DNA of 60,731 nucleotides from a virus, in UHGV virus genome UHGV-1514873. One strand, 5' to 3'. Below the pieces are notes generated by a model. It was given only the letters and a program-made list of their open reading frames with translations, searched no databases and was not told the DNA's origin. Of the stretch, positions 11,182-45,902 are shown piece by piece. Numbering within the stretch: position 1 is the first letter of the stretch; every line of letters begins with the position of its first letter. A program made the position numbers and the translations under genes.

Positions 11182-11874
11182 ATGTTATATGCATTTAAGC
11201 TGGGCAGAAAACTGCGCGGCGAGGAACCTTATTGCCCTGAAAAAGGCGGGAAAGGTGGCAGTTCTGATAAAAGTGCAAAGTATGCCGCAGAAGCTCAGAA
11301 GTATGCCGCAGACCTGCAAAATAAGCAGTTCAACACCATCATGAACAACCTGAAGCCGTTTACTCCTCTGGCTGATAAGTATCTCGGCAGCCTCGAGAAC
11401 TTATCGTCTCTGGAAGGGCAAGGTCAGGCGCTTAACCAGTATTACAACTCTCAGCAGTATAAAGATCTTGCTGGTCAGGCTCGCTATCAGAGTCTGGCGG
11501 CAGCGGAAGCAACAGGTGGATTGGGTTCCACCGCAACCAGTAATCAGTTAGCAACAATCGCACCAACGCTTGGTCAGCAATGGCTATCTGGACAAATGAA
11601 CAATTACAACAACCTGGCAAATATCGGTCTTGGCGCTCTTCAGGGACAGGCAAACGCCGGGCAAACATATGCCAACAACATGAGTCAGATTTCGCAGCAA
11701 AGCGCAGCACTGGCGGCGGCAAACGCCAACCGACCGTCAGCATTGCAGCAGGGTGTTAGTGGTGCTGCATCCGGTGCGCTTTTGGGTGGTGGCATAGCCA
11801 GTGCTCTCGAGCTATCAACTCCGTGGGGGGCTGGTATTGGTGCTGGTCTTGGTCTGCTTGGTTCACTGTTTTAA
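11182..11874 (+). CDS. ejection (internal virion) protein, gp7-like
   Basis: 230 aa, Q/N/G/A-rich, position as P22 gene 7. Confidence 0.6.
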   Translation: MLYAFKLGRKLRGEEPYCPEKGGKGGSSDKSAKYAAEAQKYAADLQNKQFNTIMNNLKPFTPLADKYLGSLENLSSLEGQGQALNQYYNSQQYKDLAGQARYQSLAAAEATGGLGSTATSNQLATIAPTLGQQWLSGQMNNYNNLANIGLGALQGQANAGQTYANNMSQISQQSAALAAANANRPSALQQGVSGAASGALLGGGIASALELSTPWGAGIGAGLGLLGSLF

Positions 11875-11884
11875 GGGTTAATCA

Positions 11885-13300
11885 ATGGCTACGTGGCAAC
11901 AGGGTATTAATTCTGGTGGTTTTCTGGCTGGCATTGGTACGCAAAATGAGAATGCACCAAAGGCAAGCGACATTAACGCAACGCTTGGTCTGATTCGCGA
12001 AAACAATGAACTGGCTCGATCAGGTGCAAATAACGTTGGTCTGACCGCGTTACGTGGTCTGGCTGGAGTTGCTGATATTTACAATCAGGAACAGCAACAG
12101 AAAGCGATTAGTGCGTTCAATAAGGTTCATGCTGATGCATGGGCTTCTGGTGATCCATCGGGACTATTTAAGTTTGCCCAGGAAAATCCAGCGTTTGTTG
12201 CACAGGCACAACAGGCGTTTTCCGGTCTTAATGATCAGCAACGCAACGATATGGGCGATTTAGCCATGAGGGCTAACGTAGCTCTTTCTCAGGGACCGGA
12301 AGCCTACAGTAAATTCATTACTGACAACAAGGACAGGTTAAATCGCGTTGGTGCTAATGCTGACTGGATGATTCAGACAGGTATCCAGAATCCAGAGCAG
12401 CTATCACACATGCTGACTACTATGTCTCTCGGTGCACTTGGGCCAGAAAAGGCGTTTGCTGTTCAGGACAAGATGGCTGGTCGTGAAATTGACCGAGGCA
12501 GACTGGCAGAGACAATCCGCAGCAATCAGGCTGGAGAAGCACTTCAGGCGAGAGGCCAAAACCTTTCCTATCAGTCAGCAATGACTGGGCACAATATCGC
12601 AGCACAACGTTTGGCTCTGGATCAGCAAGAGTTCGGGTTTAAGATGCAGCAAGCGCAGGAAAAGGCTCAGCAGTTGATTAGCGAAGCACCTAAGCTGTCA
12701 GTAAACATGGAAAAAGGCATCGAGACGGCTGTAAACAATGCCACAGCATCATCAAACTCAGCCAATTCTATGAGTGCGCTTGCTCAACAGTTCAGAGCAG
12801 AAAAACCAACGACAGGTTTGTTCGGTAACGCACAGAACATGTTCGCAAAACTTACCGGAAGCGATACGACATTGCGTGATTTGCGCATTCGCCAAAATGC
12901 CCTTGTTAACAGTCAGGTTCTTAAATTCCTACCTCCCGGCCCCGCAACGGATAAAGACGTTGAGATCGTTCGTCAGGGTGCACCAACTGACATGGATAAC
13001 CCTGAGACGGTCGCAAGATGGCTTGATGCTATGGCAAACCTTGAGCGACGAAACGCGCAGTTTAATGAGTTTAAAGCCGAGTGGATGAGCGCGAATGGCA
13101 ACCCTGGACAATCGCGTAATGGCGGTCAGATATTGGGGTTGGATGTTAAAAAAGGTGAATCATTGGGGAGTGCCGTTAAGCGGTATATGTCAATGAATAC
13201 TGACGCAGCGCCAGCACAAGATTCGACACCTTCAGGAGAACCACGGAATCAGGTTGGATCATATACCTCAAAATCAGGCATTCAATTTACGGTGGAATGA
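11885..13300 (+). CDS. ejection protein, gp20-like
   Basis: 471 aa, position as P22 gene 20. Confidence 0.65.
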
Positions 13301-15138
13301 TGAAAGTAACTGCAAACGGTAAGACATTTACCTTTCCTGATGGTACGAGCACCGAAGATATTGGCACCGCCATTGATGAGTATTTTGCTGGTCAGGCTGT
13401 TCAGCAACAAACAGCTAATCAGGCCAATAATGCACCAACACGGGAAGAACCATCATTGATGCAACAAGCTGGCGATTGGCTTACTGGTAGTCAAAGTGCA
13501 GGGCAAATTGCAGAACAGGCTGGTCGTGGTCTGGTAAACATACCATTTGACGTATTGCAGGGCGGCGCAAGTCTGATTAATGCAATCAGTCAGGGGCTTG
13601 GTGGACCCAAGGTTTTGGATGATGTTTATCGTCCAGTAGACAGACCGACAGACCCCTACGCGCAAGCCGGTGAAACAATTGGTGGGTATTTAGTTCCAGG
13701 AGTTGGAACAGCAGGAAGCATGGCTATTGGATCACTGGCAGAGGCAGCAAATCAGAAAGGCGATTTCGCACAAAATGCAGCTAAAAATGCCGGAGTTAAC
13801 CTTGCCGCTCAGGGTGTTCTTTCCGCAGCAGCAAAGGGAATAGGGCGTGGAATAACGGCTATAAAAGGTGATATTGCGCCAGAAGTGGCGAAGAAAATTG
13901 CCACATCAGAATCTATGGGCGTGACACCAATGACATCTGATGTTATCCCGCCGAAAAATGCTTTCACTCGCGGCCTTACTCAGGATGCCGAGGGGGCTTT
14001 GCTCGGGACAGGCTCAAAGCGAGCGGAGCAATATGCAACGCGTAGTAAGCTGGTAAGCAATTATTTTGACCGTTTTGGTGAGTACAACCCTGATGACGTG
14101 GTGAAATCTCTGACCACCACGTTAAGGGGGCGGAAGGATGCCGCTGGCGCTGTTATCAATGACGTCACCAATAAAATGGGTAATGCCGCAGTTGATACCA
14201 CAAATACCATGAATGCTCTGAATACAGCGATCGCAAGACAGGAACGGCTTGGGACGTCTGCCAATCAAAGCCTGCTTACATCCTTGCGTAACCTACGTGA
14301 AGAATTAGCAGACCCTGCAACTGATTTGGATGTTACGTTTGATCTCTTGCGTCAGCACAGAACAGCATTTAGATCTAATGTTCAGGGAGATGCTATGGTC
14401 TTCCCCAACCAGGCAAAAGCAGCTACCAATATGGTAGAGAATGCAATGTCAAAAGACCTTCGTAACGCAGTTGCTAAAAACCTCGGTGCATCAGACGCAG
14501 CAAAATACCTTAAAGCAAATTCCGATTATGCAAACGTTTATAATAAGGTGCTTAATAAAAACATTGCTAACAAGCTCAACAAGGCAAGCAGTGAAGCCAG
14601 TCCTGAACTTATAAATACCGTTGTATTAAGCAGAAAACCATCTGACGTGAAACGAATCTGGAGCGCATTGGATGATAAAGGGAAAGATGCTATGCGTGCA
14701 GCTTACGTCAGCAAAATAGCGGAAAAGGCTGGTGACTCTCCAGCCAAGTTCATCACTGAAGTTAATAAGCTGAAATCTCAGTCAGGCGGTGAAATTTACA
14801 ACACTATTTTTTCTGGAAAGCACATGAAAGAGCTTGATGCTCTTCATGAAGTTCTACAGCAAACAGCAAGGTCAGACACCGCAAATGTAGTAACTCAGAC
14901 GGGGCAATCGCAAGCCAACAGGATAAGGACGATTGGCGCAACTGCGACTCTTGGCGTATCAATGGGGCTTGAGGCTGGTTTCGGTGCAATGATGCGCTTG
15001 TATGAGTCCAAAGCAGCAAGGAATGCTCTCTTACGTTTGGCAAACACCAAAGCAGGAACGCCAGCCTATGAAAGAGCGTTGAGTAACGCTGCAAATGCCA
15101 TCAGGCCGCTGCTTGCTACTGAGGCAACACAGCAGTAA
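13297..15138 (+). CDS. ejection protein, gp16-like
   Basis: 613 aa, position as P22 gene 16. Confidence 0.65.
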
Positions 15139-15162
15139 CGTATGGGGAATGGGATTCAATCG

Positions 15163-15552
15163 TTAACATTTTCTTTTTACTTTTCCAACAAAAGCTTTGG
15201 TTGAATCCATATTCCCATAACCAGAAATGGTTTTCGACATTAAAACTGTTCCATTAGGATGTATTACCCATGAGTCGATAACTCGTTGAGTTTCGCCATT
15301 CGCGCCGATTCCAATGATGGAGTTTTTAGACAATGCTTTGTAAGCCATGCCGCCCGCATCCGTCCCAGAATATGTGATACTGGCATCTTCACCGTTTGTC
15401 TTAATGATGAATGTTCCACTAAAACCATCTTCTTCCGGTTGAAAATTATTTCGTTCTGAATAGCTTATTCCGTGCATATCGCCAACGACCCAGCACTCTG
15501 CTGTAGCCCCAAAAGATATGAATAAGAACATAGCAGCAAGAACTTTCTTCAC
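15163..15552 (-). CDS. secreted periplasmic protein of unknown function (moron)
   Basis: Signal peptide MKKVLAAMFLFISFGATA; occupies sieA position after gene 16. Confidence 0.55.
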   Translation of the reverse strand: MKKVLAAMFLFISFGATAECWVVGDMHGISYSERNNFQPEEDGFSGTFIIKTNGEDASITYSGTDAGGMAYKALSKNSIIGIGANGETQRVIDSWVIHPNGTVLMSKTISGYGNMDSTKAFVGKVKRKC

Positions 15553-15657
15553 ACCAACCTCCTTAGTTTTGAGCAGGATACCATGAAAAAAGTAAACATC
15601 TTTTGCCTACTTCACATTTGAATGTTTTGTCATTAGGATGTTTCCGGTTTTTTAAAT

Positions 15658-16089
15658 ATGGAAATTGATATGAAGAGGATTATTAGCGTCGTTGCTGGCG
15701 CTATCATGTTATCTGGGTGCGCAACTATTGTTGGTGATGAAACGCAACTTGTGCAAGTGAACAGCAATCCTTCCGGTGCGAGCTTTAAGGTAAAAGACGA
15801 ATCAGGCGTGATTGTTGCGCAAGGTAAGACCCCGCAAGGAGTAACTCTTGCCAAGTCAGATGGTAGTTATTTTGGCAAAAAGAGCTACCAGATCACTATG
15901 GAGAAGGATGGGTACGAACCAGTTACCCTGCCAATCAAAGCCAATGCTAATGGTTGGTATATTGGTGGAAACCTTGTGTTTGGTGGGTTAATTGGTTGGC
16001 TTGCTGTAGATCCATTTAATGGTGGGATGTATACCTTGAAGCCTAAAGAGGCAAATGCATCCCTTATACCGTCCACAAAGCACGACTAA
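15658..16089 (+). CDS. lipoprotein with PEGA-like domain (moron)
   Basis: Lipobox IMLSGC; PEGA-like segment; alternative start 15670 (MKRIIS); divergent from 15163-15552. Confidence 0.6.
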   Translation: MEIDMKRIISVVAGAIMLSGCATIVGDETQLVQVNSNPSGASFKVKDESGVIVAQGKTPQGVTLAKSDGSYFGKKSYQITMEKDGYEPVTLPIKANANGWYIGGNLVFGGLIGWLAVDPFNGGMYTLKPKEANASLIPSTKHD

Positions 16090-16095
16090 TAAATG

Positions 16096-16120
16096 GAACC
16101 CACCATCAGGTGGGTTTTTT
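16096..16120 (+). terminator. terminator after lipoprotein gene, overlapping 3' end of mnt
   Basis: aacccacc/atca/ggtgggtt hairpin followed by TTTTTT. Confidence 0.6.
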
Positions 16121-16357
16121 GTACAAATCCTTCAGCGTATCAAACACCATCTTCTTAACAAGTTCGGACTGCTCATCAGCGATGCGTTCCGCATCGTCTC
16201 GATAGCCTGAAATTTTGGATGGCTTTGATACAGCATCAGTCACTATCTGAACTAATTCTGAATTAAGAGAGCGGCCATTGGATTTGGCTCGCTGTTTTAG
16301 TTTTTCCTTTAATTCGTAAGGTAGCCGCAGATTAAATTGCGGGTCATCTCTTCCCAT
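16106..16357 (-). CDS. mnt: Mnt repressor (ribbon-helix-helix)
   Basis: 83 aa, near-identical to P22 Mnt as recalled (MGRDDPQFNLRLPYELKEKLKQRAKSNGRSLNSELVQIV...KKMVFDTLKDLYKK). Confidence 0.9.
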   Translation of the reverse strand: MGRDDPQFNLRLPYELKEKLKQRAKSNGRSLNSELVQIVTDAVSKPSKISGYRDDAERIADEQSELVKKMVFDTLKDLYKKPT

Positions 16358-16420
16358 TCTTGATGCCTCGCTTTTGTGAGTGGATCGGCATCTTATTATC
16401 TGCTGGTTGCATCCTCAATA

Positions 16421-16435
16421 AGACCACAGTGGTCT
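16421..16435. promoter_or_regulatory. Mnt operator-like palindrome
   Basis: agaccacAgtggtct perfect inverted repeat, analogous to P22 Omnt, between mnt and tailspike. Confidence 0.5.
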
Positions 16436-16503
16436 CTTTGTTTGATTAATAATACATCACTGTGGCAATGCTGCGGCGATTCCTTGTATCTGGAGCAAAT
16501 TAA

Positions 16504-19449
16504 ATGACAGACATTACAGCCAATGTTGTAGTGAGTATGCCTTCGCAACTCTTCACTATGGCGCGTTCTTTTAAAGCCGTAGCCAATGGCAAAATTTATA
16601 TCGGTAAAATTGACACTGACCCGGTAAATCCTGAAAACCAGATTCAGGTTTATGTAGAGAACGAAGACGGTTCTCACATTCCTGTTTCGCAACCAATAAT
16701 CATTAACGCTGCTGGATATCCGGTATATAACGGACAGATTGCCAAATTCGTAACCGTGCAAGGCCATTCTATGGCTGTTTATGATGCGTATGGTACACAG
16801 CAGTTCTATTTTCCGAATGTGCTGAAGTATGATCCTGATCAGTTACGACAGCAATTAGAAGACCCAGATGGAGCGAATAAATACCCAAAACTTCAGATAG
16901 CAAGATGGAGAGACAGTTATGATGTAAGAGGTTGGGGGGCTATTGGTGATGGTGTTCATGATGATACATCAGCTCTATCAGAATTACTTTCTGTTGCAAC
17001 AGGTGGTGAAAAGATAGATGGGCGAGGGCTTACTTTTAAAGTATCAACTCTTCCAGATGTCAGTCGATTTAAAAATGCTCGTTTTTTATTTGAGAGAATA
17101 CCGGGTCAGCCTCTTTTTTATGCTTCTGAAGATTTTATCCAAGGAGAGTTATTTAAAATTACAGATACACCGTGGTACAACGCCTGGACGCAGGATAAAA
17201 CGTTTGTATATGACAATGTCATCTATGCGCCTTTTATGGCTGGAGACCGCCATGGTGTAAATAACCTCCATGTTGCATGGGTTCGCTCAGGAGATGACGG
17301 GAAGACCTGGACAACGCCGGAATGGCTTACAGATTTACATGAAAACTATCCCACAGTTAACTATCACTGCATGAGTATGGGGGTTGTCAGAAATCGCCTT
17401 TTTGCTGTAATTGAGACGCGGACCGTGAGCGGAAATAAACTGCAGGTTGCAGAGTTGTGGGATCGCCCAATGAGTCGCAGCCTTCGCGTTTATGGTGGTA
17501 TAACGAAAGCAGCAAATCAGCAAGTCGCTTATATTCGCATTACTGATCACGGATTATTTGCTGGTGATTTTGTCAACTTCTCAAACTCTGGTGTTACAGG
17601 TGTTACCGGGAATATGACGGTGACTACTGTCATTGATAAAAATACTTTTACAGTTACGACGCAAAATACCCAGGATGTGGATCAGAATAACGAGGGTAGA
17701 TACTGGAGTTTTGGTACATCATTTCACTCGTCACCATGGAGAAAAACCAGTCTTGGAACTATTCCTTCTTTTGTTGACGGAAGCACTCCTGTTACTGAGA
17801 TTCACAGTTTTGCGACGATTAGCGATAACAGTTTTGCTGTTGGCTACCATAATGGTGATATTGATCCACGCGAGCTTGGGATACTCTATTTCTCTGATGC
17901 TTTCGGTTCTCCTGGTAGCTTTGTTCGCAGACGCATACCTGTAGAATATGAGGCGAATGCATCTGAGCCATGTGTAAAATATTATGATGGCATTCTGTAT
18001 CTGACGACCAGGGGGACATTAAGTACTCAACCCGGTAGTTCATTGCACAGAAGCTCTGATTTAGGTACATCATGGAATTCTCTTCGCTTCCCAAATAATG
18101 TTCATCACTCAAACCTTCCTTTTGCCAAAGTTGGCGATGAGCTGATTATTTTTGGCAGTGAGCGCGCATTTGGTGAGTGGGAAGGAGGAGAACCTGATAA
18201 CCGTTATGCAGGAAATTATCCAAGAACATTTATGACCAGAGTTAACGTCAATGAGTGGAGTCTGGATAATGTAGAGTGGGTTAATGTTACTGATCAGATT
18301 TATCAGGGCGGAATAGTTAACTCTGCGGTTGGTGTTGGTTCAGTTTGTATCAAAGACAACTGGCTGTACTACATTTTCGGTGGGGAAGACTTTCTAAACC
18401 CATGGAGCATAGGGGATAACAACAGAAAATATCCTTATGTTCACGATGGTCACCCGGCTGATTTGTATTGTTTCAGGGTGAAAATTAAACAGGAAGAATT
18501 TGTTTCAAGGGATTTTGTCTACGGAGCCACTCCTAACAGAACGCTTCCTACTTTTATGTCGACGTCAGGCGTGAGGACGGTTCCTGTACCCGTTGATTTC
18601 ACAGATGATGTTGCCGTCCAGTCACTGACTGTCCATGCCGGTACATCAGGACAAGTTCGCGCGGAAGTCAAACTTGAGGGTAATTACGCCATTATTGCGA
18701 AGAAAGTACCGTCTGATGATGTTACCGCTCAGAGATTAATCGTTAGCGGCGGTGAAACAACGTCTTCAGCAGATGGCGCAATGATAACGTTGCATGGTTC
18801 CGGAAGCAGTACTCCACGTCGCGCGGTATATAACGCACTCGAACATCTTTTTGAGAACGGAGATGTTAAACCTTATCTTGATAATGTAAATGCTCTTGGT
18901 GGTCCGGGAAACAGGTTCTCGACAGTTTATCTTGGCTCCAATCCTGTGGTTACCAGTGACGGAACATTAAAGACAGAGGCGGTCTCTCCTGACGAAGCAT
19001 TGCTGGATGCCTGGGGTGACGTCAGGTATATCGCTTATAAATGGCTGAACGCTGTCGCTATAAAGGGGGAAGAAGGGGCGAGGATACATCATGGTGTAAT
19101 CGCGCAGCAACTTCGTGATGTTCTTATTTCTCACGGACTCATGGAAGAAGAAAGCACAACATGCCGCTATGCCTTTCTTTGCTATGACGATTATCCCGCA
19201 GTATATGATGACGTCATTACTGGCCAAAGGGAAATACCGCTGACTGATAATGACGGGAGCATCATTGTTGATGAGGATGATAATCCAGTGATGGTAATGG
19301 AAGACATCATTGAGCGCGTTGAAATAACGCCAGCAGGATCTAGATGGGGGGTCAGACCTGATCTCTTATTCTATATCGAGGCGGCATGGCAGCGCAGAGA
19401 AATAGAAAGAATAAAAGCTAGGTTAGACTTAATAGAAGGGAAGCACTAA
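16504..19449 (+). CDS. tailspike: P22 gp9-type head-binding domain + sialidase (endosialidase-like) domain + C-terminal chaperone-like domain
   Basis: N-terminal ~120 aa match P22 tailspike ([11 protein letters not shown]...[22 protein letters not shown]); two Asp-box motifs SGDDGKTW and SSDLGTSW; 981 aa. Confidence 0.85.
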
Positions 19450-19602
19450 ATGTTTCGTTGGCGTCAAAAATATGAACTGCTCACATAAAGAAGTAAGTAC
19501 ATTGGCAAAAAACATTGACGTCAACGAAATTAAATATAAAAATTTAAATGCTTTTTAATGACAAGAAAAGTAACTAGTGGTAAAATAACGTAGGATACTA
19601 AT

Positions 19603-20316
19603 ATGTCAAGACTCAAGACTCAAGACTCAAGACTCAAGACTCAAGACTCAAGACTCAAGACTCAAGACTCGTTTTCCGTTGATGATAATGGGTCAGGTAA
19701 TATTTTTGTATGTGGAGATCTTGTAAATAGCAAAGAGAATAAAGTTCAGTTCAATGGAAACAATAACAAACTTATTATAGAAGATGATGTTGAGTGTCGA
19801 TGGCTTACCGTAATATTTAGGGGTGATAATAATTACGTAAGAATACATAAAAACAGTAAGATTAAAGGTGATATTGTCGCAACAAAAGGTTCAAAAGTTA
19901 TTATCGGTAGAAGAACGACAATAGGTGCAGGTTTTGAAGTCGTCACTGATAAGTGCAATGTTACAATTGGCCATGACTGCATGATAGCAAGAGATGTTAT
20001 TTTGCGTGCATCAGATGGGCATCCTATATTTGATATTCATAGCAAAAAAAGGATTAATTGGGCAAAAGATATCATTATATCTAGTTACGTATGGGTAGGG
20101 AGAAATGTCTCTATAATGAAAGGGGTATCTGTTGGAAGCGGATCTGTCATTGGGTATGGGAGTATTGTAACTAAAGATGTGCCATCTATGTGTGCAGCAG
20201 CCGGTAATCCAGCAAAAATAATAAAAAGAAATATAATATGGGCAAGAACGGATAAAGCGGAGCTAATTAGTGATGACAAGAGATGCTCCAGCTATCATGC
20301 GAAGCTCACGCAATAA
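19603..20316 (+). CDS. neuO: phase-variable polysialic acid O-acetyltransferase NeuO-like (hexapeptide-repeat acyltransferase)
   Basis: ATG followed by 9 x AAGACTC (3 x RLKTQDS) then left-handed beta-helix acyltransferase body. Confidence 0.85.
   Translation: MSRLKTQDSRLKTQDSRLKTQDSFSVDDNGSGNIFVCGDLVNSKENKVQFNGNNNKLIIEDDVECRWLTVIFRGDNNYVRIHKNSKIKGDIVATKGSKVIIGRRTTIGAGFEVVTDKCNVTIGHDCMIARDVILRASDGHPIFDIHSKKRINWAKDIIISSYVWVGRNVSIMKGVSVGSGSVIGYGSIVTKDVPSMCAAAGNPAKIIKRNIIWARTDKAELISDDKRCSSYHAKLTQ
19608..19670 (+). repeat. 9 tandem copies of heptanucleotide AAGACTC inside 5' end of neuO
   Basis: Counted directly: 63 nt = 9 perfect units. Confidence 0.95.
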
Positions 20317-20693
20317 ATATAAAACATCATGCAGACATATTACCAATATTAATATAAGGTAATAAAAATATAATTTACAAAAAAGCCCGTTGGAAGCGAC
20401 GGGCATTAACCGCGGTAATGGATAAATTATTAATGTTTTTAGATTGTGAACGATATCATATTGTGCGGAAGTAGTGAAGTAACCATGTAAAATGATTGTT
20501 TCATAGCCTATGAGACACACAAGGCTTTGTGCTCTTCTGTGGATGTGTGGCTACATGTTTGAAGATCGTTGTGCCGTATTTGTGACATACACATGGCAAC
20601 ATCATGCCTCAACTTTCTGTTTGTGCCATCAACTATAGATTAGTGAATGCGGTTAATGCTTGCTAAAACAGATAGTTATGATTGGTGCTACAG

Positions 20694-20741
20694 ATTCGTA
20701 ATGCGAAGGTCGTAGGTTCGACTCCTATTATCGGCACCATT
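20694..20741 (+). repeat. att core: 3' 48 nt of tRNA-Thr (thrW-like), copy 1
   Basis: attcgtaatgcgaaggtcgtaggttcgactcctattatcggcaccatt; 5' half of tRNA absent; identical copy at 60193-60240. Confidence 0.85.
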
Positions 20742-20753
20742 TAAATCAATAAG

Positions 20754-21917
20754 TTACACATCATTAGTACCTTCCTTATTTTTTGACTGGGACAAATTTG
20801 GGACCGATGGGTTCAGGATCGAGTCTATTTGCCGTGCGTGTTCGGTAAGGTGATTAGGTGCAAGGTGAGCATATCGACGAACCATTTCGATAGACTCCCA
20901 GCCTCCCATTTCCTGTAACACTGACAACGGGACTCCGGCTTGAACCAGCCAACTTGCCCAGGTGTGTCTCAAGTCGTGAAATCTGAAATCATCAATACCA
21001 GCCCGTCTCAGCGCCGCTTTCCAGGCTGTGTTTGCGTCATACCGCATCTTCCTTACTGTTGGCGCTTTCGTTCCGTCTGGTTTGGTACAGCTTTCCTTGT
21101 ACACAAATACCCAACGGTGATGATTCCCGATTTGTTTTTTCAATACGCGACATGCAGTATCATTCAGCGCAACGCCAATTGCGCGGTTTGATTTACTCTC
21201 TTCCGGGTTTATCCATGCCACCCGGCGCTGCATATCTATTTGTTGCCATTCAAGGTTGATGATGTTCGAGCGTCTTAAGCCTGTTGCCAGTGCAAATTCA
21301 ACAACAGACTTTAATGGCTCCGGACATTCATCAATCAGCCTTTGTGCTTCATGGGGCTCCAGCCAGCGGATCCGTTTATTCTTTGGTTGAGGCACTTTAA
21401 TAATTGGTGCCTTATCCAGCATTTTCCATTCACGCTCTGCGGCTCTTAGTAGGGCCTTTATAAATGAAAGATGCGTAGCCTTCGTTGCAACGGACGCTGG
21501 TTTTGGCGTGTATTCTGGAACAGGTTTCCCTTTTTTTCTGCATGCTTCTGCCCTGAGTTTCCAGTTTTCCTCATGACGCCGGTTCGTCATTTTCTGCATT
21601 GCTGAATAAATTTTTGATTCAGTAATGTCTCTTAGTTGCATTCCTGCGAAATGTTGAAGCCAGAATCCGATCCGGCTTTTGTCATCGTCCAGTGATTTTT
21701 TATGTGCTTTCTCTTCAAGCCACCTGACACACGCTTCCTCGAACGTTATATCAGGTATTTCACCAAGTTTGCTGACCCGCCATGCTTCAGCCTTTAGCTT
21801 GTCATGGAGTTCTGTCGCCTGCCTTTTGTCCTTTGTTCCAAGAGACTGTTTAAATCTTTTACCGTTCGGCAATGTGAAACTGGCGTACCATATTTCACCT
21901 CTGCGGAAGAGTGACAT
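20754..21917 (-). CDS. int: tyrosine integrase, P22 Int-like
   Basis: 387 aa, near-identical to P22 integrase as recalled ([46 protein letters not shown]...). Confidence 0.95.
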
Positions 21918-22144
21918 TTTCTTTCCTCTGTTATGCCATCACCCGCGCTCACCTGGACAGTATGCAGCGGAGACTGAAGAGCCGCAATGCAGGCTTGTCG
22001 TGTTGTGAGGTAAGGAGATTTATTCTTAGTGGGATCTTTGCGTGTTGCCTGAAGACGCCCTGTGCGTATCCAGTTAATGGCAGTCGGTCTGGATATCTTG
22101 AGAAAATGACAGGCCTCATCGAGTGTGAGGCTGTATGGCTCCAT
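21794..22144 (-). CDS. xis: excisionase, P22 Xis-like
   Basis: [38 protein letters not shown]... matches P22 Xis; internal ATG at 22144 chosen over the longer ORF. Confidence 0.85.
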
Positions 22145-22449
22145 TATTTCACCTCTTGCTGTGACATTGTTGAGAAATGGATACCAGCTCGTTGCTGCCA
22201 GACGATCCAACCGAGAGTCATATCCCATGCCATGTATTCGTTATCGCCGTTTTTTGCTCTCCGACGATCTACTAAGTCACCAAAACGCTTTTCCATGAAT
22301 AATTCATAAGCTTCGCGTTCATCTGGTTCTACTTCCAGAGATAGGAGTGCGATTTCATAAGCACGGCGCTCAATATCGTCTCGCACGTCAAGGCTGCTGA
22401 TACGCTCTTTAATTTCTTTAATCAGTTCTTTGTCGGTAAAAGTGGTCAT
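22144..22449 (-). CDS. hypothetical early protein
   Basis: 101-aa ORF translationally coupled to neighbours. Confidence 0.5.
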   Translation of the reverse strand: MTTFTDKELIKEIKERISSLDVRDDIERRAYEIALLSLEVEPDEREAYELFMEKRFGDLVDRRRAKNGDNEYMAWDMTLGWIVWQQRAGIHFSTMSQQEVK

Positions 22450-44251: not shown

Positions 44252-44422
44252 ATGTTTGTCAAACCTGTTAAAGGGCGGTCAGTTCCTGACCCTGCCCGCG
44301 GCGACCTTTTGCCCGTCGAAGGGCGAAATGTTGACGAGAACAACTACTGGCTGCGCCGTGAAGCAGCGGGTGATATCCGGCGCGTGAATAAAAAGGTGAA
44401 CACCGATGACGATAAGCTTTAA
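44252..44422 (+). CDS. small conserved protein upstream of sheath (below ORF-track cutoff)
   Basis: 56-aa ORF found by manual translation, overlapping sheath start. Confidence 0.4.
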   Translation: MFVKPVKGRSVPDPARGDLLPVEGRNVDENNYWLRREAAGDIRRVNKKVNTDDDKL

Positions 44423-45902
44423 CACCATTCCGTCGAATACGCTGGTTCCGCTGTTTTATGCGGAAATGGATAACCAGGCGGCGAATACTGCACAGGACAG
44501 CGGAGCATCGCTGCTGATTGGTCATGCCAATAACGGTGCAGAGATTGTTGCCAACAGTCTGGTACTGATGCCGTCGGCAGACTATGCACGCCAGATTTGT
44601 GGTGCGGGAAGTCAGCTGGCGCGTATGGTCGAGGCTTATCGCCAGACCGACCCCTTTGGCGAGCTGTATGTGATTGCCGTTCCGGAAGCCACAGGCGCGG
44701 CGGCAACGGTTACGCTGACGGTGACCGGAGCAGCAACCGAAACCGGCACGGTGAATGTTTATGTGGGACGTACCCGCGTGCAGGCACCGGTGACCAACGG
44801 CGATAACGTCACGACGATTGCCAGCAGTATCCAGGATGCCATCAATGCCGTTCCGGCCCTGCCGTTTACGGCCTCATCTTCGGCAGGCGTGGTCACACTG
44901 ACCGCGCGTCATAAGGGGCTTTGCGGGAATGAAATTCCTGTCAGCCTCAATTACTACGGCTTTGGTGGGGGCGAAGTGCTGCCAGCGGGCGTACAGATTG
45001 CTGTGGCGACGGGTACCGCCGGAACGGGCGCTCCTGTTCTCACCGGTGCGGTGGCTGCAATGGCGGATGAGCCGTTTGATTATATCGGTCTGCCGTTCAA
45101 CGACACGGCCTCCGTTAACACGCTGGTGACCGAGATGAACGATACCAGCGGTCGCTGGAGCTATGCGCGTCAGCTGTATGGTCATGTGTATACGGCAAAG
45201 ATCGGCACGCTGTCAGAACTGGTGACCGCAGGTGACCAGTTTAACCAGCAGCACATTACCCTGGCGGGGTACGAAAAAGACACCCAGACGCCTGCCGATG
45301 AGCTGGCGGCAAGCCGTACCGCCCGCGCAGCGGTGTTTATTCGCAACGATCCGGCACGTCCCACGCAGACCGGTGAGCTGGTGGGTATGCTGCCTGCGCC
45401 GAAGGGGAAACGGTTCACGATGACCGAACAACAGACCCTGCTGTCTCATGGCGTGGCAACGGCGTATGTCGAAAGCGGGGTACTGCGCATTCAGCGTGAT
45501 GTCACCACGTACAGGAAAAACGCTTACGGGGTTGCGGATAACAGCTACCTCGACAGCGAGACGCTGCATACCAGCGCGTATGTACTGCGCAAACTGAAAT
45601 CCGTCATTACCAGTAAGTACGGGCGTCACAAGCTTGCCAGTGACGGTACCCGCTTTGGTCCCGGTCAGGCGATTGTCACCCCGGCGGTGATCAAAGGGGA
45701 ACTGCTGGCAACCTACCGTCAGCTTGAGCGAGCGGGGATCGTGGAAAACTACGAACTGTTTAAGCAGTACCTGGTTTTGGAGCGTGATGCCAGCGATCCG
45801 AACCGCCTGAACACGCTGTTCCCGCCTGACTATGTTAACCAGTTGCGTGTCTTTGCCGTGGTTAACCAGTTCCGTCTTCAGTATTCAGAGGAGTCTGCAT
45901 AA
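44406..45902 (+). CDS. contractile tail sheath protein
   Basis: 498 aa; Mu gpL-like position before tube gene. Confidence 0.85.
   Translation: MTISFNTIPSNTLVPLFYAEMDNQAANTAQDSGASLLIGHANNGAEIVANSLVLMPSADYARQICGAGSQLARMVEAYRQTDPFGELYVIAVPEATGAAATVTLTVTGAATETGTVNVYVGRTRVQAPVTNGDNVTTIASSIQDAINAVPALPFTASSSAGVVTLTARHKGLCGNEIPVSLNYYGFGGGEVLPAGVQIAVATGTAGTGAPVLTGAVAAMADEPFDYIGLPFNDTASVNTLVTEMNDTSGRWSYARQLYGHVYTAKIGTLSELVTAGDQFNQQHITLAGYEKDTQTPADELAASRTARAAVFIRNDPARPTQTGELVGMLPAPKGKRFTMTEQQTLLSHGVATAYVESGVLRIQRDVTTYRKNAYGVADNSYLDSETLHTSAYVLRKLKSVITSKYGRHKLASDGTRFGPGQAIVTPAVIKGELLATYRQLERAGIVENYELFKQYLVLERDASDPNRLNTLFPPDYVNQLRVFAVVNQFRLQYSEESA

Follow-up and report, generated by a model that had tools for sequence, protein, structure and literature searches.

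Which surface polymer does the tailspike gene at positions 16504..19449 of the virus genome UHGV-1514873 address, is the gene already known, and what kind of prophage carries it? The whole stretch analysed, 60,731 nucleotides (nt) of one strand, is hereafter called the window, and nucleotide positions refer to it unless otherwise indicated. On its plus strand, 16504..19449 is one intact open reading frame (ORF) that runs from ATG to TAA and encodes 981 amino acids (aa). A preliminary description, made from the letters alone, had taken the product for a mosaic tailspike with a P22 head-binding domain, a sialidase centre and a chaperone-like C-terminus, and had named K1 polysialic acid (polySia) as the receptor. 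We found that, across its full length, the gene is 98.8% identical in DNA to siaK1 of prophage CUS-3 (CP000711; ABQ88383.1). The two proteins have the same length of 981 aa and are 98.7% identical, and none of the 13 substitutions between them falls on a mapped functional residue. Judged by its sequence, the window gene is a routine allele of the already known CUS-3-type endosialidase tailspike, and as such an ordinary feature. Its product is almost certainly the tailspike with which a temperate, CUS-3-like phage (P22-like, Lederbergvirus) of Escherichia coli K1 binds and destroys its receptor. The preliminary interpretation is thereby supported as essentially correct, yet it is not a new inference, because siaK1 of CUS-3 has already been characterised.

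For the CUS-3 endosialidase tailspike siaK1 (ABQ88383.1 / CAJ29292.1), the reference is Stummeyer et al. 2006 (PMID 16689790). The siaK1 entry of the CP000711 record carries the annotation 'endo-alpha-sialidase activity [Evidence IDA] PMID 16689790'. Endo-cleavage of alpha-2,8-polySia may be ascribed to the window protein indirectly, via this direct-assay annotation of a 98.7% identical protein, and we infer, in agreement with the preliminary description, that K1 polySia is the receptor. The calculated mass of the precursor is 109.3 kDa, and the CUS-3 enzyme is tabulated at 109 kDa in a review (PMC5380687). The gene is common: at least 80% of it is present in 181 of 5426 complete E. coli genomes (~3%). 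The 'phage tailspike protein' of E. coli strain E1 is 100% identical to the window tailspike, and the window gene shares 99.8% identity with the tail gene of vB_EcoP-720R6, which was deposited as a phage record.

The domain architecture of the protein was resolved as follows, with the supporting match in brackets.

16504..19449, plus strand: siaK1-allele endosialidase tailspike gene (ORF; 98.8% nt and 98.7% aa identity to ABQ88383.1)
16504..16842, plus strand: P22-type head-binding (particle-binding) domain, aa 1-113 (Pfam PF09008 Head_binding, 222 bits, E=1.6e-66)
16843..16938, plus strand: linker and module junction, aa 114-145, after the conserved YDPDQ (similarity to K1F gp17 from aa 114; P22 similarity fades past aa 115)
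16939..17139, plus strand: endosialidase N-terminal extension, aa 146-212 (Pfam PF12218 End_N_terminal, 8.8e-37; alignment to PDB 1v0e from aa 146)
17140..18489, plus strand: six-bladed beta-propeller catalytic domain, aa 213-662 (Pfam PF12217 End_beta_propel, 8e-233)
17473..17721, plus strand: beta-barrel (polySia-binding) domain inserted in the propeller, aa 324-406 (Pfam PF12195 End_beta_barrel, 157 bits, 1.2e-46)
18490..18954, plus strand: stalk (triple beta-helix, End_tail_spike), aa 663-817, the C-terminus of the mature spike (Pfam PF12219, 261 bits, 7.4e-78)
18955..19446, plus strand: C-terminal intramolecular chaperone and autoprotease (Peptidase_S74), aa 818-981, 18.6 kDa (Pfam PF13884; PDB 3gw6)

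All six Pfam domains lie above their curated cut-offs and in canonical order, with the endosialidase body behind Head_binding. The propeller profile PF12217 reached 772 bits against a cut-off of 24 bits, with profile positions 1-367 fully covered, and the Peptidase_S74 match spans aa 818-878 (E=2.4e-10; 41 bits against a 22-bit cut-off). Solved structures gave a consistent picture. Residues 145-817 were matched by chains 1v0e and 3gvl of endoNF, the endosialidase of phage K1F, at E=0 and with one 7-residue insertion, and residues 698-979 were matched at 5.5e-94 by 3gw6, a crystal of the endoNF stalk with its C-terminal chaperone. The N-terminal domains of Sf6 gp14 and P22 gp9 matched aa 1-118/127 (1e-45 to 1e-65), the P22 tailspike chains covering aa 1-127 at E ~1e-50. 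Crystal structures at 56-70% identity span aa 1-127 and 145-979. With E-values of practically zero, these similarities are not due to chance. The chaperone assignment of the preliminary description stands by virtue of the S74 and 3gw6 matches and of the TSDGTLKT segment, found at aa 817-824 (nt 18952-18975); its length of about 150 aa is corrected to 164 aa (818-981).

The central region had been read as a sialidase on the basis of two Asp-boxes, and both motifs were recovered:

17287..17310, plus strand: Asp-box 1, SGDDGKTW, aa 262-269 (regular expression; aligned to endoNF SGDDGQTW)
18052..18075, plus strand: Asp-box 2, SSDLGTSW, aa 517-524 (regular expression; aligned to endoNF SRDIGQTW)

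The pattern S-x-D-x-G-x-x-W has exactly two matches in the whole protein. Two Asp-boxes and a six-bladed propeller are also traits of exosialidases, and the generic sialidase profile BNR_2 gives a weak match, as would be expected if the protein were a classical, GH33-like exo-sialidase that takes sialic acids off chain ends and not an endo-acting depolymerase. However, in the search of sialidase and S74 profiles that the preliminary description had suggested, the endosialidase profiles and Peptidase_S74 came out above their cut-offs and BNR_2 below: BNR_2 scored 17.2 bits, under its 31.4-bit cut-off, while the endosialidase-specific profiles scored 772, 261, 157 and 125 bits, far above theirs, which places the protein in the phage endosialidase family and not among the exosialidases. 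Moreover, the closest solved structures are all endo-N-acetylneuraminidases, and for the near-identical CUS-3 protein the annotation cites direct-assay evidence of endo-alpha-sialidase activity. We consider an exo-acting enzyme to be extremely improbable. A sialidase-type beta-propeller is thus retained from the preliminary description, as that of an endoN-family endo-sialidase and not of a classical exo-sialidase (End_beta_propel, 8e-233).

The first ~120 residues had been described as almost colinear with P22 gp9. Residues 1-115 indeed align to gp9 residues 1-115 without a gap (Head_binding, E=1.6e-66), and beyond them the alignment becomes gapped. From aa 114 onwards, the protein is similar to K1F, phi92 and other endosialidases. 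In the DNA, the late operon is homologous to HK620 and Sf6 as far as window position 16844, which is codon 114, and this endpoint coincides with the end of the Pfam head-binding domain. The tailspikes of P22 (gp9), Sf6 (gp14) and HK620 resemble the window protein in the N-terminal head-binding domain (window aa 1-113), but each has as its receptor-binding body a right-handed parallel beta-helix, an O-antigen endoglycosidase that bears no relation to the endosialidase propeller (PMC5380687). According to the same review, CUS-3, HK620, Sf6 and P22 have a common N-terminal domain, and CUS-3 and K1F a common catalytic part; the P22/K1F mosaic relationship is already published and is textbook material (PMC5380687). 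A gp9-like beta-helix O-antigen depolymerase past the N-terminus was considered and rejected, because past aa 115 the P22 alignment falls apart into gaps. Instead of a non-sialidase beta-helix without the catalytic residues, the outcome named in the preliminary description as speaking against it, we found a member of the endoNF fold family in which five of the five listed residues, given below, are conserved. In the sequence before the start codon, agreement with CUS-3 bsq1 is confined to the last ~47 nt, and ~66 nt agree with the DNA that precedes P22 gene 9.

In phiv205-1 (MN340231, 1344-6739), the same gene seems to have been split: a 216-nt 'bifunctional tail protein' fragment is set apart from the remainder. 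Three ORFs lie between the pieces, two of them annotated as transposases, which amounts to an insertion-sequence disruption of the head-binding domain.

Of the known systems, CUS-3 siaK1 shows the identical domain order, followed by neuO in the same order and with the same spacing as in the window. K1F endoNF (gp17; 1v0e, 3gvl, 3gw6) is 64% identical over aa 114-980, the propeller reaching 70% and the stalk and the C-terminal domain (CTD) 56% each. It differs in its particle-binding N-terminus, which is T7-fibre-like (gp17 aa 1 to ~213), whereas that of the window protein is P22-like. Relative to K1F, the window protein has seven inserted residues (aa 423-429, within SFVDGSTPV), and its CTD shows small indels. 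Functional residues were mapped by alignment to the full-length K1F gp17 from AM084414, and those of endoNF reported as catalytic or substrate-binding (PMC12632334) were located as follows:

17251-17253, plus strand: H250, equivalent to endoNF H350
17869-17871, plus strand: R456, equivalent to endoNF R549
17965-17967, plus strand: E488, equivalent to endoNF E581
18010-18012, plus strand: R503, equivalent to endoNF R596
18163-18165, plus strand: R554, equivalent to endoNF R647

In the second shell, endoNF Q330, D331, H527, S528, K585 and N699 are all identical in the window tailspike. The residues of the cleavage domain are likewise kept (S911 as S818, K916 as K823, G956 as G864, D994 as D902 and R866 as R773), and the S818/K823 pair sits within the TSDGTLKT segment. 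A Ser/Lys dyad carries out S74 self-cleavage (PMC3742443). The K1F record sets the boundary between the mature protein and gp17-CTD at S911, homologous to S818, and the endoNF crystal chains 1v0e and 3gvl terminate at the residue aligned with T817. Cleavage is predicted between T817 and S818 via the S818/K823 dyad, with predicted products of 90.6 kDa (aa 1-817) and 18.6 kDa (aa 818-981). With the Peptidase S74/ICA family (endoNF CTD, phi29 gp12, T5 pb1, MYRF) the window domain has in common the Ser and Lys five residues apart at the domain start and the conserved Gly. It bears a long endosialidase-type extension, as in the K1F CTD, and otherwise shows no notable difference from the family. Across the window tailspike, no sequence feature was found that contradicts its explanation as an endosialidase tailspike.

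The preliminary description had further held that the prophage modifies the same polymer. A polySia O-acetyltransferase gene indeed lies 153 bp downstream of the tailspike gene:

19603..20316, plus strand: neuO, polySia O-acetyltransferase, 237 aa, in frame (PDB 3jqy (NeuO), 1.1e-156; hexapep Pfam match)
19608..19670, plus strand: neuO variable-number tandem repeat, 9 copies of AAGACTC (three RLKTQDS heptads), phase ON (repeat count)

Within and around the 153-bp spacer, 156 of 158 nt match CUS-3 up to the first neuO repeat, and after the repeats 644 of 646 nt are identical to CUS-3 neuO (99.7%). The gene is in frame if the repeat copy number is a multiple of three (PMC3046976; PMC13001214). 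Nine copies satisfy this, and therefore a full-length NeuO with three RLKTQDS heptads is encoded, in phase ON; the CUS-3 record from RS218 differs in having 19 repeats (OFF). The catalytic efficiency of NeuO is reported to rise with heptad number, and because only three heptads are present, the window neuO would be a low-activity ON allele. A promoter-like match lies just upstream of neuO at 19558-19586, as a consensus match only. Apart from this notable site, a promoter and terminator scan of 16050-20800 gave about as many promoter-like sites as chance would produce. Sensitivity to phage, to neutrophils and to serum is likewise influenced by the phase of NeuO. NeuO-dependent O-acetylation lowers killing by K1 phage, which has been read as superinfection exclusion, and this phage-resistance function of NeuO is already published (PMC9659370; PMC13001214).

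The explanation that we propose starts from what was directly observed, namely the domains, the ORF, the conserved catalytic and cleavage residues, the near-identity to CUS-3 and the neuO frame. From homologues and the literature, we further infer trimerisation, autocleavage, endosialidase activity and the role in phage resistance. Three chains would form a trimer, the C-terminal chaperone (aa 818-981) nucleating the folding of the stalk. Once the trimer is correctly folded, the chaperone domain would cut itself off between T817 and S818 by means of S818/K823, leaving a mature subunit of ~90.6 kDa. The P22-type residues 1-113 would dock the spike onto a P22-like tail, and the endoNF-type body (propeller, barrel and stalk) would bind alpha-2,8-polySia. 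The active site of the propeller (E488, R503 and R554, with H250 and R456) would then cut the polymer internally, so that the virion could tunnel across the K1 capsule and reach the outer membrane. In the lysogen, neuO in its ON state would O-acetylate the same polymer, altering capsule antigenicity and lowering susceptibility to K1 phage in a phase-variable manner.

The substrate might instead have shifted, such that O-acetylated polySia or the alternating alpha-2,8/2,9 K92 polymer is preferred and plain K1 polySia is not the true receptor. Four of the 13 substitutions relative to CUS-3 siaK1 lie in the stalk (G767, T807) or just past the cleavage site (A826, A832), the phi92 homologue stems from a K92 host, and O-acetylation has been speculated to create new receptor motifs (PMC13001214). 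Yet the substitutions are few and conservative, the active-site residues are unchanged in a propeller that is 70% identical to that of endoNF, and K1 hosts are recorded for strains and phages that have nearly the same allele, so that we hold a shifted substrate to be very improbable.

Three points weigh against an active tailspike directed at K1 polySia, the reading that we prefer. Residue Q853 of endoNF, which we take to be a polySia-binding residue of the stalk, is M760 in the window tailspike. Residue N912 of endoNF, reported to be essential for CTD function, is D819; this position is unchanged between the window protein and the characterised CUS-3 SiaK1, and the MYRF equivalent of N912 is also an Asp (D579) (PMC3742443). 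Third, CUS-3-like prophages often decay (PMC9659370), and for this reason an intact tailspike gene is no proof of an inducible phage. The gene could accordingly be imagined as a dead relic in a decaying prophage, its product never assembled into virions and only neuO under selection: tail and coat genes of CUS-3-like prophages are annotated as pseudogenes in many isolates (PMC9659370), transposases break up the phiv205-1 tailspike gene beyond its 5' end, and the integrase of the tailspike prophage lies outside the window. On the other hand, the ORF is of full length with all functional residues kept, the P22-like late genes upstream are all uninterrupted and of the expected size, and a 99.8% identical copy is present in vB_EcoP-720R6, deposited as a phage. 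A relic is, in our view, unlikely.

The window DNA comes from an E. coli that has the K1 polySia capsule or had an ancestor with it. Endosialidase tailspikes find use as reagents specific for polySia and, against E. coli of neonatal meningitis, in phage therapy. The main value of the present analysis lies in the correct annotation of the locus as a prophage of the CUS-3 type whose neuO is in the ON frame; the only addition, a modest one, is the unusual integration context together with the evidence of a recent cassette exchange between phage genera.

The exchange became apparent from a comparison with vB_EcoP_ZX5 (Uetakevirus, epsilon15-like; QTH80017.1; MW722083 2303-5422) and the Phi05_2388/1999 contigs, in which the endosialidase body is 99.3-99.4% identical in DNA to that of the window. 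The shared body corresponds to nt 522-2914 of the gene (window 17025-19417). The ZX5 and Phi05 proteins differ in their N-terminal ~190 aa, a different particle-binding module from another phage genus, and their last ~11 codons diverge. The DNA identity of more than 99% with the ZX5 body points to a very recent exchange of the endosialidase cassette between temperate phage genera.

Downstream of neuO, homology to CUS-3 stops near window position 20540. About 150 bp (20545-20693), unmatched to CUS-3, separate this point from an exact attachment-site (att) repeat. The following features were recorded from there to the right end:

20694-20741 and 60193-60240: 48-bp exact att repeat with the P22 attP core ATGCGAAGGTCGTAGGTTCGACT (exact-repeat finding)
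21794-22228: protein of the Xis-like helix-turn-helix type
44406-45902: tail sheath, which marks the second element as a myovirus
55473-56522, minus strand: Acyl_transf_3 gene
57246-58706, minus strand: gtrII-like gene
58703-59632, minus strand: gtrB
59629-59991, minus strand: gtrA

The 48-bp repeats bracket an element of ~39.5 kb, and the left copy is at the same time the right end of the CUS-3-like prophage. Because the CUS-3-like prophage ends at the left att copy, the two prophages appear to lie head-to-tail at one thrW-type att site. The second element (20754-60192), with a P22-like Int and structural genes of the myovirus type, is an SfII-like serotype-converting prophage: its right end (54300-60244), with a tail-fibre assembly gene, the acyltransferase gene, gtrII, gtrB, gtrA and attP, is ~98% (98.1%) identical to Shigella phage SfII. 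From the head-to-tail array it follows that one att copy adjoins the gene for O-acetylation of the capsule (neuO) and the other, ~39.5 kb away, the genes for modification of the O-antigen (gtrA, gtrB, gtrII and the acyltransferase).

CUS-3 itself differs in having an argW integrase and attL core, whereas the end of the window prophage bears the P22/thrW-type att repeat. The CUS-3 argW attL core is absent from the window, and ARAGORN found no tRNA gene within it. The integrase at 20754-21917 is 90% identical in aa to P22 Int, and its sole local alignment to CUS-3 Int is 48 aa long, with 23% identity. Canonical integration of the CUS-3 type at argW was rejected on these grounds, namely the missing tRNA gene and CUS-3 attL core and the P22-like integrase nearby. 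We also discarded the assignment of this integrase to the tailspike prophage, since it lies inside the repeat-bounded second element. For CUS-3-like phages, only argW and pgl-bioA are listed as integration sites (PMC9659370).

In the 9001-20298 region of vB_EcoP-720R6 (ON470605), the tailspike lies at the prophage end by ybhB and the bio operon, that is, at the pgl-bioA site. As no neuO is annotated after the tailspike in this record, siaK1 also occurs without neuO and at another site. In strain E1, the same tailspike-neuO cassette has behind it a truncated Arm-domain integrase and then vat, yagU and ecp, a neighbourhood that we take to be that of thrW. Read by eye, the translation of the last segment of the window, 60240-60731, directly behind the right att copy, has the look of the beginning of a P4-type integrase. 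It is similar to the truncated Arm-domain integrase found after neuO in strain E1 by the vat island and would suggest a third element in the array.

Our tentative reading of the carrier, plausible though somewhat short of probable, is a CUS-3-like phage with the siaK1-neuO cassette on an HK620-like late backbone, lying at a P22/thrW-type att site rather than at argW or pgl-bioA, head-to-tail with an SfII-like prophage and an island with a P4-type integrase, its endosialidase body recently exchanged with a ZX5-like phage. The integration context leaves the identity of the tailspike unchanged.

Upstream of the tailspike, a late operon of the P22/HK620 type runs from gp1 to gp16 type, and its ORFs (terminase, portal, scaffold, coat and gp4/10/26/14/7/20/16) are uninterrupted and of the expected size. 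Between this operon and the tailspike lie three further genes:

15163-15552, minus strand: 129-aa secreted-looking protein, phrog_2651 (function unassigned; phrog match)
15658-16089, plus strand: 143-aa lipoprotein-like protein, phrog_6823 (function unassigned; phrog match), with weak PEGA and Cor-like N-terminus
16106..16357, minus strand: mnt, Arc/Mnt-family repressor, directly upstream of the tailspike and divergent from it (Pfam Arc 2.7e-22, Repressor_Mnt 2.2e-18)

CUS-3 has ant and two copies of mnt before siaK1, whereas the window has a single mnt, and no ant gene was found there between mnt and the tailspike. The upstream arrangement of vB_EcoP-720R6 and strain E1 is the same as that of the window. 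Because the phrog_2651 and phrog_6823 genes occupy the sieA position of P22, they may be superinfection-exclusion cargo.

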